IMG/VR virus record: IMGVR_UViG_3300032116_000064
Coordinates: 37,538-101,537 of that record
Length of the DNA: 64,000 bases
Reading direction: 5' to 3' (one strand)
Source: a virus
Below, in pieces: positions 41,579-51,329 of the stretch; the first letter of the stretch is position 1; each line of letters starts with the position of its first letter. A model generated the notes under the pieces. The model made no database searches. It worked only from the letters and a program-made list of their open reading frames with translations, and had not been told where the DNA came from. Position numbers and translations under genes: made by a program.

Positions 41579-42342
41579 ATTTCAATCTCTATGTACCTTT
41601 CTGATTTTGGGGGGAACGACCCTTTTATTGTATCCAAGCATTTCAAAATGTCAAGTCTCAACTTTTCTTTATCGGCTAAACACACTGAGTCAGATAAGTT
41701 TTTTATTCTGATTATGACCATTCCCTTACTCAATATTAAACCACTTTTTTGTGTGTCAGCTTTGATTTGCTTTTGCAGTTTTTCTTCTCCCCAAATGGGC
41801 AAGAAGTGAGAAGGTCCGTCTACCTCTATTATAGTCTTGATGGACGGGATGTACATATCCAGTTCCATGTCTTGGTTTTGAATGAGTTGCTTCTTATGAT
41901 ATTGAACAGCGTAGCCACCTTTGGTAATTTCTTCATATAAAAATTTTTCTAGCTTAGAGCCTTCTTTACCAGCCGCCTGTATACTCTTAATAGCAGCACT
42001 CATCATCTTATCCTTCTCTACATCTGATAGAGATTCCCATCTCTTTTTTGACTGATCTACTCTTGACTTATACATCTCATCCGACATATCATCCCAATAC
42101 TTTTTAAGACCAGAACTAATCTTTAACTTTTCCTCTTTAGTTCTAACCTTACCACTAGTAGGATGAACAGCAGTTCCGCTTTCTATAGCATTCTTCTGAG
42201 CTTCGCTTTTGGTTTTTAGATTAATACCACTTTTTAAAAGAATACGTCTTATGCGATTGGGGTAAGTATTCAACTCTTCCGCAATTTCATAAGTACTCTT
42301 ATGTTGTTTGGTATACATTGTTATTATTTGATTTGTATTCAT
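41575..42342 (-). CDS. HTH plus Vsr/DUF559-like endonuclease
   Basis: Start reassigned to the ATG at 42342; STYEIAEEL HTH, NUMOD3-like EEKLKIS, ELDMYIP...IEVDGPSH nuclease motif. Confidence 0.7.
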   Translation of the reverse strand: MNTNQIITMYTKQHKSTYEIAEELNTYPNRIRRILLKSGINLKTKSEAQKNAIESGTAVHPTSGKVRTKEEKLKISSGLKKYWDDMSDEMYKSRVDQSKKRWESLSDVEKDKMMSAAIKSIQAAGKEGSKLEKFLYEEITKGGYAVQYHKKQLIQNQDMELDMYIPSIKTIIEVDGPSHFLPIWGEEKLQKQIKADTQKSGLILSKGMVIIRIKNLSDSVCLADKEKLRLDILKCLDTIKGSFPPKSERYIEIEI

Positions 42343-42784
42343 CTTCACACCTTGATAGTAGATCTGTGATATTATTAAAATTTTCTGATATTCCAATTGC
42401 CTTCTTGCCAGTTAATCTATAAATTTCTTTAGCATCTTTTTCTGACTTGCATATGATTTTGACATTTTTTGTTAACATAACTAAATGTAATGTATTTTTT
42501 GTTTTTTCCCATCCGTGATAATAAAATATGTTAATATTATTTACAACCCTTAGAGAAGTAGCCAAAGCATCTAATGAAGTTACTATTAAATTTCCATTAA
42601 AGCTCCATAAGTCTGTAGAATTAAACATACCGCATGGGGTATGATGTGGGTTAAAATCTATATTATCATAAAAAATGCTGATATCATAGATATCCTTAGA
42701 GTTTAAATTTTTATTTACAAAAGAGCCAACGTGCATCAATTGCTCTTGGTCTGAAAAGTTACATAGATATATTCCTAAATTCAT
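42299..42784 (-). CDS. Degenerate glycosyltransferase-like protein (single Rossmann half)
   Basis: Start at 42784 (ATGA overlap); LIVTS...IFYYHGWE...IICKSE resembles a GT-B N-terminal domain. Confidence 0.35.
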   Translation of the reverse strand: MNLGIYLCNFSDQEQLMHVGSFVNKNLNSKDIYDISIFYDNIDFNPHHTPCGMFNSTDLWSFNGNLIVTSLDALATSLRVVNNINIFYYHGWEKTKNTLHLVMLTKNVKIICKSEKDAKEIYRLTGKKAIGISENFNNITDLLSRCEDEYKSNNNNVYQTT

Positions 42785-43521
42785 TGGTCCCATTCTCCAA
42801 TCATGTTTGAAAAGAAGTTATTGCCAAGATAATAATGTCTATCAAATCCAGCCGATCCCAAAAATGGATTTAAAGTAGACCCTATGTCTAGATAAGTGTG
42901 ATCGCCGCATAATTCAGTAAATTTATGACATAATATATTGCCAAATGGTCCACAGCAAAACAAAAAGAGCATATTTTTTTCTGGCATTGCAGATAGAAGC
43001 ATCTTAGAATTATCTACCCAATCCCAATTGTATTCCCAAGCATTGTTTTTAAGAGGAACCACCATATAAGGTACAAATGGTAACTTATCTATTTTTCCAG
43101 CCTCATTACAGAATAATACTATATTTCTATTCTTATACAAAGGTAATATGTTATTGATATAGTACTGATAGTTTGAATTTACCCATATATCTGCCCATGT
43201 TAAGTGTTCTTCATCTTGCTTACATATCTGTTTCATAAATCTATGAGTTTGTAATCCAAAAACTTTGGTACAAGTAATTCCAATAAAATATCTTGGATTC
43301 TTATATTGAAACGCACTAATTAGAGCCTGTCTTTTTATTTGATCCTTTTCACTACTTGGATCAAACCAAAATTCTTTGTTATCTATTTGCTGATTACATA
43401 TAACAGACCATTCGCCATCACAAAATTTAGAAAAGCTAATATTTTCTTTATTTTTCAGTGCATGTTCCAAAATCTTAATATCTGAGAGAAAGTCTTTATT
43501 TGGCGGTGTAGTAAACTTCAT
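42781..43521 (-). CDS. GT-D fold (DUF1792-like) glycosyltransferase
   Basis: ISFSKFCDGE and LFCCGP...YLDIGS match the SxxRFGDGE / LGP...DIG pattern. Confidence 0.6.
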   Translation of the reverse strand: MKFTTPPNKDFLSDIKILEHALKNKENISFSKFCDGEWSVICNQQIDNKEFWFDPSSEKDQIKRQALISAFQYKNPRYFIGITCTKVFGLQTHRFMKQICKQDEEHLTWADIWVNSNYQYYINNILPLYKNRNIVLFCNEAGKIDKLPFVPYMVVPLKNNAWEYNWDWVDNSKMLLSAMPEKNMLFLFCCGPFGNILCHKFTELCGDHTYLDIGSTLNPFLGSAGFDRHYYLGNNFFSNMIGEWDQ

Positions 43522-49024: not shown

Positions 49025-50691
49025 ATCATACCTCTAGCTTTCAACATTTCTATTCTCTTTTCTTCCCAATAATTTCGTCTTTGCGACAAATATGCTAACT
49101 GATCATATGCTATACTAAAATCGAAAGGACTTCTATTTTGTTTACCATCAAACATGGAAGAACTTTCATTAAAGTACATACCGCCAGTAGTAGCTGTGTG
49201 ATTTTTGTATGTTAAATCTCTTACAATTCTAGACTCAAAATATGAATTTAATCGTTCTGGCTCTCCAAGAACTTCAACTATCAACCATTTGGCTAAATCC
49301 TTATAATTGACATTAGTCGGAATTGGATCGGGTTTTGGTTTAGCCGTTACTATTCTTGGTGGTTGTTTCCAATTTTCGAAATTGTCTGAGATTTCTACAG
49401 AATCAAAGAATTTTTCCCAAGCCCTTCCGCTTTGATCCCATTGATAATGTTTCAAAAATGCTTGTCTTGTTTCAAAGCCCATTCTCTTTCTTATACCGAT
49501 TGGTTGTTCAAAAAATTCTTTAAACTTTTGTGCGGCTAATTCGTTATCTGGTACTGCTCTGAAACATCCAGTTTCTAACTCTTTGTACAAAGCTTTTGGG
49601 GCCAATGGTATACCGCCAAGATTTCTTACTACACTTTCCATAGCAGAATAATCTGTAGCCATTACTGGGATGCCACATGCCGCTGCTTCAACTTGCGGTA
49701 ATCCAAAACCTTCACAGTTAGCATATTGAACATAAAGATCGAACAAGTTAATTATCTTAGACAAATCTTCATATTCTACACCATTTTTGACATTAGACAA
49801 TGATGCACCAAATTGTCCAGTAAATGGAGATTGTGCTATGGCACCTTTGAATAAGGATGGAAATGGTTTGCCGGTTTGGCCACATATATATGTAAAATAT
49901 ACCTTAGAGGACAATTGATATTGTTGTAATAGCTCTGGTATATCCCATCCAAGATCGGGATAACTGGTATGGCAATACAAATAATAATTAGAATTGTCTT
50001 CTACTCTGTCTAATAATAATCTAAATGCTTGAAAAAGATCTGGATATAATTTACGACGCTGGTTTCTCATTACGGTGCCAATGATCTTTGCGTTAGGATC
50101 AATACCCATAGATGATCTTAACCCTTCTTTGTCTTCTATGGGGCGATAAGCATGATGGGCCGATGGCGGTGAAATTCCTATATACTTGATTTTTTCACCC
50201 GATTGTTGCTTCAATACTTCTCCAGCCCATTCAGAATATGTCAAACATGCATCAGCAGATTCATAAGTTGCTATCCATTGTCTTGCTTGTGGTCTAGCAT
50301 CTACGGTTGGCATAATGCACCATTTAAAATATTTTCTAAATGGCGATCTTTCTGCAAAGTCTAACATCCAAAAATCACGAATATCACACACTATATCTGG
50401 AAGAAAGTCAAGACAAACAGATTCGAACATTAACTCACCAAATTGTGCTACTGGCTGTTGATTATACTGATTTTTTTCTTCCTCAGAACACGAAGCATCT
50501 GGGACAACGCCATAAAATTTCCACGGTATAGATGATGCCCGTGGATCATTTCTTTCTCCATAAGAAGCCATTTCTGCAAGTTCATATTTACCAGTACTGT
50601 GGAGATAATTCAAAATCTCTCTAGTATATGTAGCATATCCGGTGTTCAAAAATGTAGCTTCGCTGCAAAATAATATTCTTGGTTTTCTCAT
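49021..50691 (-). CDS. GT4-family glycosyltransferase with a C-terminal extension
   Basis: NTGYA, RNQRRK, EGFGLPQVEAAACGIP (Ex7E). Confidence 0.9.
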   Translation of the reverse strand: MRKPRILFCSEATFLNTGYATYTREILNYLHSTGKYELAEMASYGERNDPRASSIPWKFYGVVPDASCSEEEKNQYNQQPVAQFGELMFESVCLDFLPDIVCDIRDFWMLDFAERSPFRKYFKWCIMPTVDARPQARQWIATYESADACLTYSEWAGEVLKQQSGEKIKYIGISPPSAHHAYRPIEDKEGLRSSMGIDPNAKIIGTVMRNQRRKLYPDLFQAFRLLLDRVEDNSNYYLYCHTSYPDLGWDIPELLQQYQLSSKVYFTYICGQTGKPFPSLFKGAIAQSPFTGQFGASLSNVKNGVEYEDLSKIINLFDLYVQYANCEGFGLPQVEAAACGIPVMATDYSAMESVVRNLGGIPLAPKALYKELETGCFRAVPDNELAAQKFKEFFEQPIGIRKRMGFETRQAFLKHYQWDQSGRAWEKFFDSVEISDNFENWKQPPRIVTAKPKPDPIPTNVNYKDLAKWLIVEVLGEPERLNSYFESRIVRDLTYKNHTATTGGMYFNESSSMFDGKQNRSPFDFSIAYDQLAYLSQRRNYWEEKRIEMLKARGMI

Positions 50692-51329
50692 ATGAATCCT
50701 ACTTCCCTTTGATATTCTGGATATCTCGACAATGCTATTATTTTATTTCCGTAAATACATACATATGTCGAATTTAATTGATATTCTTGAGCTATTTGTA
50801 TAGCTTTATTATTTATCATATATACTGTTGGTTGAATCATAGATGTGATGTCTAAGTATTTTTTTATATTTTTGTACATATGTTCTGTTGTTTGATAAAA
50901 TAAATCTTTGGCTGTTTCTGGATTCATTATATCTTTTATACAATCTAATATAATTGGGTGTTCGCTTTCGCAATATAATAAAGCTTGAAATGTCATTGGA
51001 CCTATTGCAGAATTAACACTAAAAAATTCAAGATTATCTGCTGTATAATGATCAATAGGTTCTACATGTTTAATATCAACATCGCAGTAATATCCACCAA
51101 ACTTTAACAAGTAACAATATCTAAAAAAATCTCCTTTAGTGCATCCAAGTTTTACGCCATGGAAAAAGTCAACATACGATGAGTCATATTCTTTTAGAAG
51201 AAATTTTACCACATCTTCATCTGTAAAAAACAGTATATTCTTTTCTGGATTTAGTAGTTTTATATTATCAAAAACATACTTTGGAATCTTATCATTTTTG
51301 TAAGTTAATATAATATTATTTGGTATCAT
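50688..51329 (-). CDS. GT32-family (OCH1-like, DxD) glycosyltransferase
   Basis: MIPNNIILT start, DFFRYCYLLKFGGYYCDVD. Confidence 0.85.
   Translation of the reverse strand: MIPNNIILTYKNDKIPKYVFDNIKLLNPEKNILFFTDEDVVKFLLKEYDSSYVDFFHGVKLGCTKGDFFRYCYLLKFGGYYCDVDIKHVEPIDHYTADNLEFFSVNSAIGPMTFQALLYCESEHPIILDCIKDIMNPETAKDLFYQTTEHMYKNIKKYLDITSMIQPTVYMINNKAIQIAQEYQLNSTYVCIYGNKIIALSRYPEYQREVGFI

Follow-up and report, generated by a model that had tools for sequence, protein, structure and literature searches.

We analyzed a 64,000-nucleotide (nt) stretch of viral DNA, hereafter called the window, which comprises bases 37538 to 101537 of a 101.5-kb IMG/VR virus contig (IMGVR_UViG_3300032116_000064, here G000; CheckV completeness, 64%), and found that its minus strand carries an island of 11 sugar-enzyme genes, at 42299 to 51329, which encodes a real, soluble multi-glycosyltransferase system. 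Judging from its gene content and from comparison with related genomes, the island most likely O-glycosylates exposed virion proteins through a pathway that the phage itself encodes and that is independent of membranes, a reading to which we assign a probability of about 0.5. The relatives compared were four large genomes (G001, G004, G005, and G008) and the more distant G019, a 141-kb contig (C90) binned in a metagenome-assembled genome (MAG), whose capsid and TerL proteins are 69% and 54% identical, respectively, to those of G000. They belong to a family of what are apparently lytic, siphovirus-like, uncultured aquatic phages of ~160 kb: a scan with the capsid protein gave at least 600 IMG/VR matches, the best 80 loci being 81 to 96% identical, and complete family genomes with terminal repeats measure 161 to 167 kb. 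A nucleotide search of a cultured-phage collection with the island gave zero matches, and protein searches found no close cultured phage, with TerL, the DNA polymerase III alpha subunit (PolIII alpha), and the core GT4 glycosyltransferase matching distantly (≤33% identity).

The 11 open reading frames (ORFs) of the island, all on the minus strand, tile 42299 to 51329, and neighbors overlap by 4 to 29 nt. We took families from Pfam and NCBIfam matches and approached the unknowns through family alignments, AlphaFold2 (AF2) models, Foldseek, VIA-align, and the ESM Atlas. Beside the SSB gene lies the gene for a GT32 enzyme of 213 amino acids (aa) (50688 to 51329; Pfam Gly_transf_sug, E = 5.3e-9; DVD at residue 83), whose ortholog is confined to the closest relative (G005/L004; 58% identity). 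Three genes for core GT4 enzymes follow. The 556-aa product of the first (49021 to 50691; Glycos_transf_1, 1.3e-11; phrog_2170, 1.7e-19) has a C-terminal extension of ~130 aa and an EGFGLPQVE (E-x7-E) motif at residue 327. Its gene, the most conserved in the island, was found in 15 of 18 large contigs, among them every one of the four with a completeness of 90% or more; those that lack it, three in number, are fragments. The second GT4 (370 aa; 47912 to 49024; Glycos_transf_1, 2.2e-12; phrog_2170, 2.3e-25) has orthologs in all island-bearing relatives (39 to 78% identity), and orthologs of the third (330 aa; 46927 to 47919; Glycos_transf_1, 9.5e-18) are 41 to 72% identical, the copy in G008 being truncated.

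The next gene (46514 to 46930) encodes a 138-aa protein that is doubtfully methyltransferase-like, matching only the C-terminal half of Methyltransf_11/12, with a score below the cutoff (E = 4e-3); its orthologs are 26 to 59% identical. It is followed by the gene for a 241-aa protein (45817 to 46542) in which an N-terminal four-cysteine (Cys4) domain, with C14, C17, C30, and C59 invariant in the family alignment, precedes a predicted GT-A fold (AF2 confidence score [pLDDT], 86.7; Foldseek GT-A matches, 1e-4). The 258-aa protein encoded at 45051 to 45827 resembles sugar-1-phosphate nucleotidylyltransferases (NCBIfam GlmU/Arch_glmU N-terminal domain, 2e-7, far below the cutoff) and carries a divergent G-x-G-T-R motif. 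All relatives retain this nucleotidyltransferase-like protein, G019 included, and G019 also retains the Cys4-GT-A protein (family profile match, 1e-20).

A 268-aa protein of no Pfam family (44264 to 45070) is predicted to be a compact GT-B enzyme (AF2 pLDDT, 94.3; Foldseek, 1e-5). Its VIA-align Z scores against BshA (14.9), PimA (14.6), and T4 alpha-glucosyltransferase (14.3) count as tied, and its family is confined to this phage group. The GT2 enzyme encoded next (249 aa; 43518 to 44267; Glycos_transf_2, 2.7e-11; DDD at residue 84) is found in the close clade only. The conserved 246-aa protein encoded at 42781 to 43521 gave no Pfam match at E ≤ 10 and no PDB profile match, and none of its 286 homologues is annotated; it matched ESM Atlas clusters (feature score, 0.96) in which 16 to 68% of members carry PF22882 or PF08759, and we treat it as GT-D-like as a lead only. 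The last gene (42299 to 42793), which forms the distal edge of the island in G001, G004, G005, and G008 and has no ortholog in G019, encodes a 164-aa protein that appears from its Atlas model to be a stand-alone, acceptor-side GT4 N-terminal Rossmann domain (template-modeling score, 0.68 to 0.74 to Glyco_transf_4 N domains). PDB sequence-profile searches with the proteins encoded at 44264, 45817, and 42781 returned nothing significant.

The island thus holds at least eight proteins with a glycosyltransferase fold, a further GT2 outside it being extra. The original prediction, made by a model from the letters of the window, had described 11 contiguous, overlapping sugar-enzyme genes, among them those for a GT32, three GT4 enzymes, and a GT2-like enzyme, and ORF tiling together with the Pfam, NCBIfam, and structure matches bears it out. 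Its less certain assignments fared unevenly: the nucleotidyltransferase-like protein keeps its label on a weak NCBIfam match, the methyltransferase-like one is doubtful, and the GT-D-like one is a lead without Pfam or PDB confirmation. The ORFs that it had called unclear also appear, from structure models, to be sugar related. Beyond the enzyme superfamilies, membership of a known family cannot be claimed for the island.

None of the minus-strand proteins of the window has a predicted transmembrane segment or a 19-residue segment reaching a Kyte-Doolittle value of 1.6, and among the proteins scanned we found no Pfam family for an initiating phosphoglycosyl-transferase, flippase, ABC transporter, polymerase, or ligase. 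The earlier remark that the cluster comes without a membrane flippase or polymerase therefore holds for the minus-strand block. These results bear on a different explanation, namely, that the island enzymes remodel the host envelope, acting at the cytoplasmic face on host lipid-linked intermediates or wall polymers, with the host supplying the initiating transferase, the flippase, and the ligase; such a change could, for example, prevent superinfection or keep progeny from sticking to debris. The GT2 and GT4 enzymes of O-antigen, capsule, and teichoic acid synthesis likewise have no transmembrane helices, so that solubility alone fits this explanation too. However, the block encodes none of the initiating, flipping, polymerizing, or ligating enzymes, nor any membrane protein at all, and the host export machinery would need to accept each variant of the island.

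In every relative examined, sugar genes fill the same slot between SSB and conserved genes for proteins of 273, 251, and 111 aa. The number of genes in the slot is 11 or 12 in G000, G005, and G001, ~10 in G008, ~27 over 22 kb in G004, and 2 in G019, where the Cys4-GT-A protein and the nucleotidyltransferase-like protein make up the whole island. According to Pfam, the extra genes of G004 encode three or four NAD-dependent epimerase/dehydratases, two DegT-type aminotransferases, an ATP-grasp enzyme, GlmS, and further GT-A enzymes. A core is common to the three island-bearing lineages and consists of the three GT4 enzymes, the 138-aa protein, the nucleotidyltransferase-like protein, the compact GT-B, and the GT4 N-domain protein; the GT32 gene, the GT2 gene at 43518, and the GT-D-like gene are clade specific. 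In the same genome pairs, the flanking replication genes are 80 to 90% identical, whereas island genes are 25 to 60% identical or have been replaced. The content of the island turns over in the manner of a surface-antigen locus, cassette by cassette, and the island is a real and conserved feature that is unusual for a phage in its size and plasticity.

Two further sugar loci lie outside the island. The original prediction had noted an orphan GT2 gene in the replication block (58134 to 59009, minus strand), and Pfam confirms the assignment of its 291-aa product (Glycos_transf_2, 2.8e-9); no ortholog was found in G019. A second sugar cassette, at G000 6201 to 9425 (L002), to the left of the window, is on the structural strand just upstream of the ERCC4, ClpP, and TerL genes and encodes a GDP-mannose 4,6-dehydratase (GMD; 2e-106), a cupin, and two TylF-like O-methyltransferases. 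The GMD gene occupies a syntenic position in G001, G004, G005, and G008, but G019 lacks it, and contig C90 of G019 gave neither a Glycos_transf_1 nor a Glycos_transf_2 match. The five island-bearing genomes all have the GT4 core together with the orphan GT2 and GMD, and G019 has none of the three, which argues that these loci serve one pathway and that this pathway is dispensable for basic replication. A gene for a PAP2-family phosphatase (window 56443 to 57090), whose product is without a clear transmembrane segment (maximum Kyte-Doolittle value, 1.43), occurs in some relatives only (L011, L012, and G008).

Some of these genes would also suit enzymes that act on the host envelope. The family profile of the orphan GT2 matched prophage TarP most closely (5e-7) and TarS as well; GMD, DegT aminotransferases, dehydratases, and GlmS are the typical set of an O-antigen locus; and the PAP2 gene is nearby in some members. 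The island, moreover, runs with the replication genes and has no structural-gene motif (see below). Set against this, the system belongs to the core of a ~160-kb family that is apparently lytic, and is thus unlike the morons of temperate phages, and the PAP2 phosphatase, confined to some relatives, lacks clear transmembrane segments. We consider envelope remodeling unlikely.

A third possibility is that the island enzymes glycosylate phage DNA after replication without a known premodifying enzyme. The location would suit this, the island being co-linear with the genes for SSB, the split PolIII alpha, primase, DnaB, and the T4-type deoxynucleoside monophosphate (dNMP) kinase, and so would the compact GT-B, which is as near to T4 alpha-glucosyltransferase (Z score, 14.3) as it is to another GT4 (Z score, 14.9). 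To our knowledge, all phage DNA glycosylation described so far needs a hydroxyl group that enzymes of one or the other of two kinds have put in place. The route through 5-hydroxymethylcytosine (5hmC), 5-hydroxymethyluracil (5hmU), or 5-hydroxycytosine (5hoC) starts with a thymidylate-synthase homologue (PMC13326640), and the other relies on a cytosine methyltransferase with a TET-like dioxygenase (bioRxiv 10.1101/2023.12.21.572611). Both papers report glycosylation solely on premade hydroxyl groups, and on their evidence multiple glycosyltransferases, along with sugar-nucleotide genes, may occur in a phage DNA-glycosylation cluster (bioRxiv 10.1101/2023.12.21.572611; PMC13326640).

PF00303 (ThyA) matched neither the 101.5-kb contig nor any of five relatives, of which four have a completeness of 94% or more (its control matched 10 of 14 genomes), and the lack of a thymidylate-synthase homologue, first claimed for the window, thus extends to the whole contig and to these relatives. 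PF00145 (C5-methyltransferase) and PF01702 (TGT) gave no match in the contig or in the four complete or nearly complete relatives, and neither did PF12851 (TET/JBP), for which the control was weak (one genome) and very divergent dioxygenases could escape. In sum, ThyA-family hydroxymethylases or 5hoC synthases, TET/JBP, C5-methyltransferases, and TGT/DpdA are undetected in this set. The genes that we did find are those for ThyX, which serves ordinary thymidylate (dTMP) synthesis, ribonucleotide reductase, RecA, PhoH, and UvdE.

The composition of the DNA points the same way. CCWGG avoidance, which the original prediction had pointed out, is borne out in G000 (2 sites seen versus 41 expected) and is also found in G004 (0 versus 231) and G008 (0 versus 107), with 0 to 4 sites seen versus 41 to 231 expected across the whole family. 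GGATCC, CTGCAG, CAGCTG, and GTCGAC are absent in lineage-specific sets, and GGTACC, GAGCTC, AGGCCT, and TCCGGA are each likewise absent from at least one genome, where 15 to 35 copies would be expected; this avoidance is read from composition and not from a digest. Bulky global base modification in phages goes with little restriction-site avoidance. The strong, family-wide purge of sites is the signature of DNA exposed to restriction and argues for unshielded DNA. Like systems of DNA hypermodification (the T4 alpha- and beta-glucosyltransferases; sets of a methyltransferase, 5mYOX, and a glycosyltransferase [bioRxiv 10.1101/2023.12.21.572611]; arabinosyl-5hoC [PMC13326640]), the island has GT-A and GT-B enzymes near replication genes, and such systems sometimes have sugar-nucleotide genes. 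Unlike them, the family combines strong avoidance of restriction sites with no detected base-priming enzyme, and its eight to more than 12 transferases far exceed those of known DNA systems. The original argument against a DNA acceptor holds and has become stronger with the four complete or nearly complete relatives and the family-wide purge. DNA seems an unlikely acceptor, and we judge hypermodification by the island to be improbable.

Candidate acceptors are found instead among the virion proteins. Immediately to the left of the window, three genes past those for the capsid protein and a fiber-like Gp80-domain protein, two structural proteins of 431 and 1,016 aa are encoded that carry (Ser-Thr)n tracts of 85 and 166 residues, which reach more than 90% Ser plus Thr. 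A candidate acceptor is the 1,016-aa structural protein encoded at G000 33438 to 37780 on the plus strand, the C-terminal end of which occupies window positions 1 to 243, with tracts at residues 455 to 620 and 759 to 811. Tracts of 50 to 166 residues are present in head-proximal structural proteins of every family member, in the form of poly-Thr in G019, and tracts of the (Ser-Thr)n type are classic substrates of cytoplasmic and mucin-type O-glycosylation. In G004, the next gene in the structural operon after that for a 786-aa tract protein encodes a 381-aa GT2 sharing 31% identity with the orphan GT2. As the capsid protein shows 96% conservation and is not rich in Ser or Thr, fibers or decoration proteins are likelier targets. 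Circumstantial support for a virion acceptor comes from the (Ser-Thr)n tracts, from the tract-protein gene that adjoins a GT2 gene in G004, and from the position of the GMD cassette next to TerL, and the most plausible acceptors would be the mucin-like tracts of head-proximal fiber or decoration proteins, not Ser-Gly dipeptides.

Ser-Gly dipeptides had been proposed as the mark of glycosylation in the original prediction. The excess itself is real: in the structural proteins, SG is the most overrepresented dipeptide (305 seen versus 202 expected; z = 7.3), GS is at expectation, and the nonstructural proteins show no SG excess. As evidence for glycosylation it fails, because the same asymmetry is found in the structural proteins of lambda (observed/expected ratio, 1.62) and T5 (1.24), where GS is near 1 and neither phage has a glycosyltransferase cluster. 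Nor does the enrichment track the cluster cleanly. The ratio is 1.51 in G000, ~1.5 in G000, G001, and G005 alike, and 1.82 in G004, and it is lower in G008, which has an island (1.19), than in G019, which is almost without one (1.28), giving a loose trend with island size over about four independent points. SG sites are flanked by hydrophobic residues (I, V, or P before; I or V and then L, F, or Y after) and in this respect resemble strand-turn-strand elements rather than exposed linkers. With these flanks and the asymmetry shared by lambda and T5, we rejected Ser-Gly as a glycosylation sequon; the excess is generic in phage structural proteins and should not be taken for one. The tripeptide [S/T]-G-S occurs at 0.9 to 1.5 times expectation. 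A search for the HPAT/SGT1-like glycosyltransferase PF23452 gave no match and was uninformative, its control having matched nowhere either.

Several structural genes of all family members have a GTGTATA(W)(W) motif 36 to 53 nt (~45 nt) upstream of their starts, as at window positions 7155, 39316, and ~900 and, left of the window, at G000 26339 and 29359. A protein with a Sigma70_r2 domain is encoded at G000 4900 to 5427, a few genes above the GMD cassette, and the motif and this protein look like a phage-specific late promoter and a sigma-like factor. The motif is absent from the island, and the one minus-strand match, at 59117, is within chance expectation. The conserved proximal boundary of the island is the SSB gene (51330 to 51693, minus strand, with its upstream intergenic element; SSB Pfam match, 2.6e-9), which has the nearest upstream gap, and five relatives share there a conserved element, GTTGTTTTTT...CTGCTAAWATA, that differs from GTGTATA. 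We tried a sigma-70-like reading of this element and do not rely on it (7 of 12 matches). A generic sigma-70 scan of the island gave 80 sites, not above expectation (65 ± 8 in shuffled sequence). On the minus strand, a pair of sites close to the sigma-70 consensus (11 of 12 matches), one at 44326 to 44298, just before the GT2 gene at 43518 to 44267, and the other at 41654 to 41627, just before the 251-aa gene, may be internal promoters.

From these observations we infer an acceptor, a glycan, and an order of steps as follows. The conserved core, the clade-specific glycosyltransferases, and the sugar-nucleotide enzymes would assemble an oligosaccharide in the cytoplasm from phage-made and host-made nucleoside diphosphate (NDP) sugars, the phage GMD supplying a GDP-6-deoxyhexose, and the oligosaccharide would be moved, still in the cytoplasm, onto Ser or Thr residues of exposed virion proteins before or during assembly. 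In a fuller and more tentative version, which we hold to be somewhat less likely than not, a heteroglycan of at least eight sugars, partly methylated and built wholly by phage enzymes with 6-deoxy- and amino-sugars among them, would coat the (Ser-Thr)n head and fiber proteins, with cassette exchange at one fixed place in the genome giving rise to clade "serotypes."

Several points weigh against virion O-glycosylation. The enzymes are at most putative polypeptide glycosyltransferases, and two of them resemble enzymes with other acceptors: the orphan GT2 profile is nearest to TarP, a prophage wall-teichoic-acid enzyme, and the compact GT-B has the tie with a T4 DNA-modifying enzyme given above. 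The GT2 adjoining a tract protein was seen in one genome only. G019, without the GT4 core, the orphan GT2, and GMD, still has poly-Thr tracts in its structural proteins, and the tracts are therefore independent of the full island; phmmer searches with two G019 proteins of no assigned family near the poly-Thr genes found nothing. The Ser-Gly excess is lost as support. Finally, since it has no GTGTATA motif and is co-linear with SSB and the replication genes, the island is probably not a late operon and is probably expressed with the replication genes. Early timing is nevertheless neutral between the hypotheses, because the enzymes and NDP sugars would be needed before assembly and DNA-modifying enzymes are also early.

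The solubility of all the enzymes and their probable expression alongside the replication genes would also fit another cytoplasmic acceptor, either a free oligosaccharide or glycoside or host proteins modified during takeover, and the compact GT-B resembles small-molecule glycosyltransferases (BshA, SenB, and macrolide glycosyltransferases). The number of transferases, their turnover, and the rare-sugar pathways better fit a displayed, diversifying glycan, and we hold such an acceptor to be improbable.

We know of virion glycosylation by phage enzymes so far only in a few actinophages, with two to four genes. O-glycosylation of virions in mycobacteriophages Che8, Corndog, and Myrna (Freeman et al. 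2023, Cell Host Microbe, cited in PMC12619734) places glycans, in the account given in PMC12619734, on the C termini of capsid and tail-tube subunits. In these phages, soluble enzymes of phage origin glycosylate structural proteins of the same phage in the cytoplasm, and gene content varies among relatives; the present island would act likewise, and its content also varies. The mycobacteriophages use few genes, whereas the islands described here, in an unrelated aquatic ~160-kb family, have from 11 to ~27, including genes for sugar-nucleotide synthesis.

Giant eukaryotic viruses offer a second comparison. Mimivirus and the Megavirinae carry clusters for fibril glycans, and the capsid glycans of chlorovirus PBCV-1 are reviewed in PMC7019647. 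Giant viruses, like the present family, have GMD, methyltransferases, aminosugar pathways (aminotransferase, GlmS), and many soluble glycosyltransferases, and in both the clusters are clade specific and independent of membrane export. The giant viruses differ in having eukaryotic hosts and chemically determined glycans; here we have the genes of a tailed bacteriophage, with kinship only at the level of enzyme superfamilies. By analogy, the island may work like mycobacteriophage virion glycosylation while resembling the giant-virus glycan clusters in gene content.

The serine-rich-repeat adhesin system of Gram-positive cocci, with its GtfA/GtfB GT4 pair, Gtf3, GalT1, and the GT-D enzyme dGT1 of Fap1, is also comparable in that GT4, compact GT-B, GT2, and GT-D enzymes O-glycosylate long Ser-rich repeats in the cytoplasm. 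Weak matches of the island proteins and the orphan GT2 toward this machinery (SdgA, Gtf3, GtfC, GalT1, GT-D, and Gtf3_N) are leads only, being similarities of fold or superfamily that tie with those to many unrelated enzymes, and unlike the adhesin loci the island comes with no accessory Sec system and its substrates would be virion proteins. The only cultured-phage match to the core GT4 was in Tetrasphaera phage TJE1 (L150; 21% identity, 2e-6), which has a minicluster, orf9 to orf14 (5388 to 10731), just upstream of TerL, for a nucleotidyltransferase, a kinase, an epimerase, a methyltransferase, and a GT4. That cluster differs in having five genes of putative function in a 49-kb actinophage.

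If virion O-glycosylation by the island is correct, complex virus-made glycans with their own supply of rare sugars would not be confined to giant eukaryotic viruses, and bacteriophages would have, in the island, an equivalent of the machinery by which giant viruses glycosylate their particles. A glycan coat could affect the adsorption, stability, stickiness, and resistance to grazing and proteases of marine and freshwater virions. The island also provides soluble glycosyltransferases that are independent of membranes and come in naturally diverse cassettes.

Contigs of the family are binned in MAGs labeled SAR202, Gammaproteobacteria, Alphaproteobacteria, Chitinophagia, Flavobacteriales, and Thermoplasmatales. 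These bins are probably misbinning artifacts, and the labels therefore yield no reliable host. The plus strand of the window up to 40089 carries the structural genes, including those for proteins of 2,345, 1,501, 2,198, 1,583, and 1,122 aa, and a Pfam scan of the large structural proteins matched next to nothing. A 413-aa protein of the structural block (G000 20154 to 21395, left of the window) is 23.5% Gly and has long poly-Gly/Ala runs; we rejected a collagen-like reading, there being just one G-x-y run of five repeats. The minus strand, from 64000 down to 40210, encodes DnaB, primase, the T4-type dNMP kinase, a PD-(D/E)XK nuclease, the orphan GT2, a 347-aa protein, and the PAP2 phosphatase, then the split PolIII alpha, SSB, the 11-gene island, and four conserved small genes. 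The PolIII alpha gene (51694 to 56399, minus strand) has genes for an exonuclease, an endonuclease VII, and a 175-aa protein inside it, and the conserved 347-aa gene (57113 to 58156) is interrupted by inserted genes in L009, L010, and L011 (~500 to 4100) and in G004 (84847 to 85245), so that both genes are split by insertions, which suggests repeated invasion of the replication genes by mobile elements. A strong terminator-like hairpin at 40179 to 40204 on the minus strand, with an 11-bp stem (seven G-C pairs) followed by a T run, closes the minus-strand unit that contains the island.

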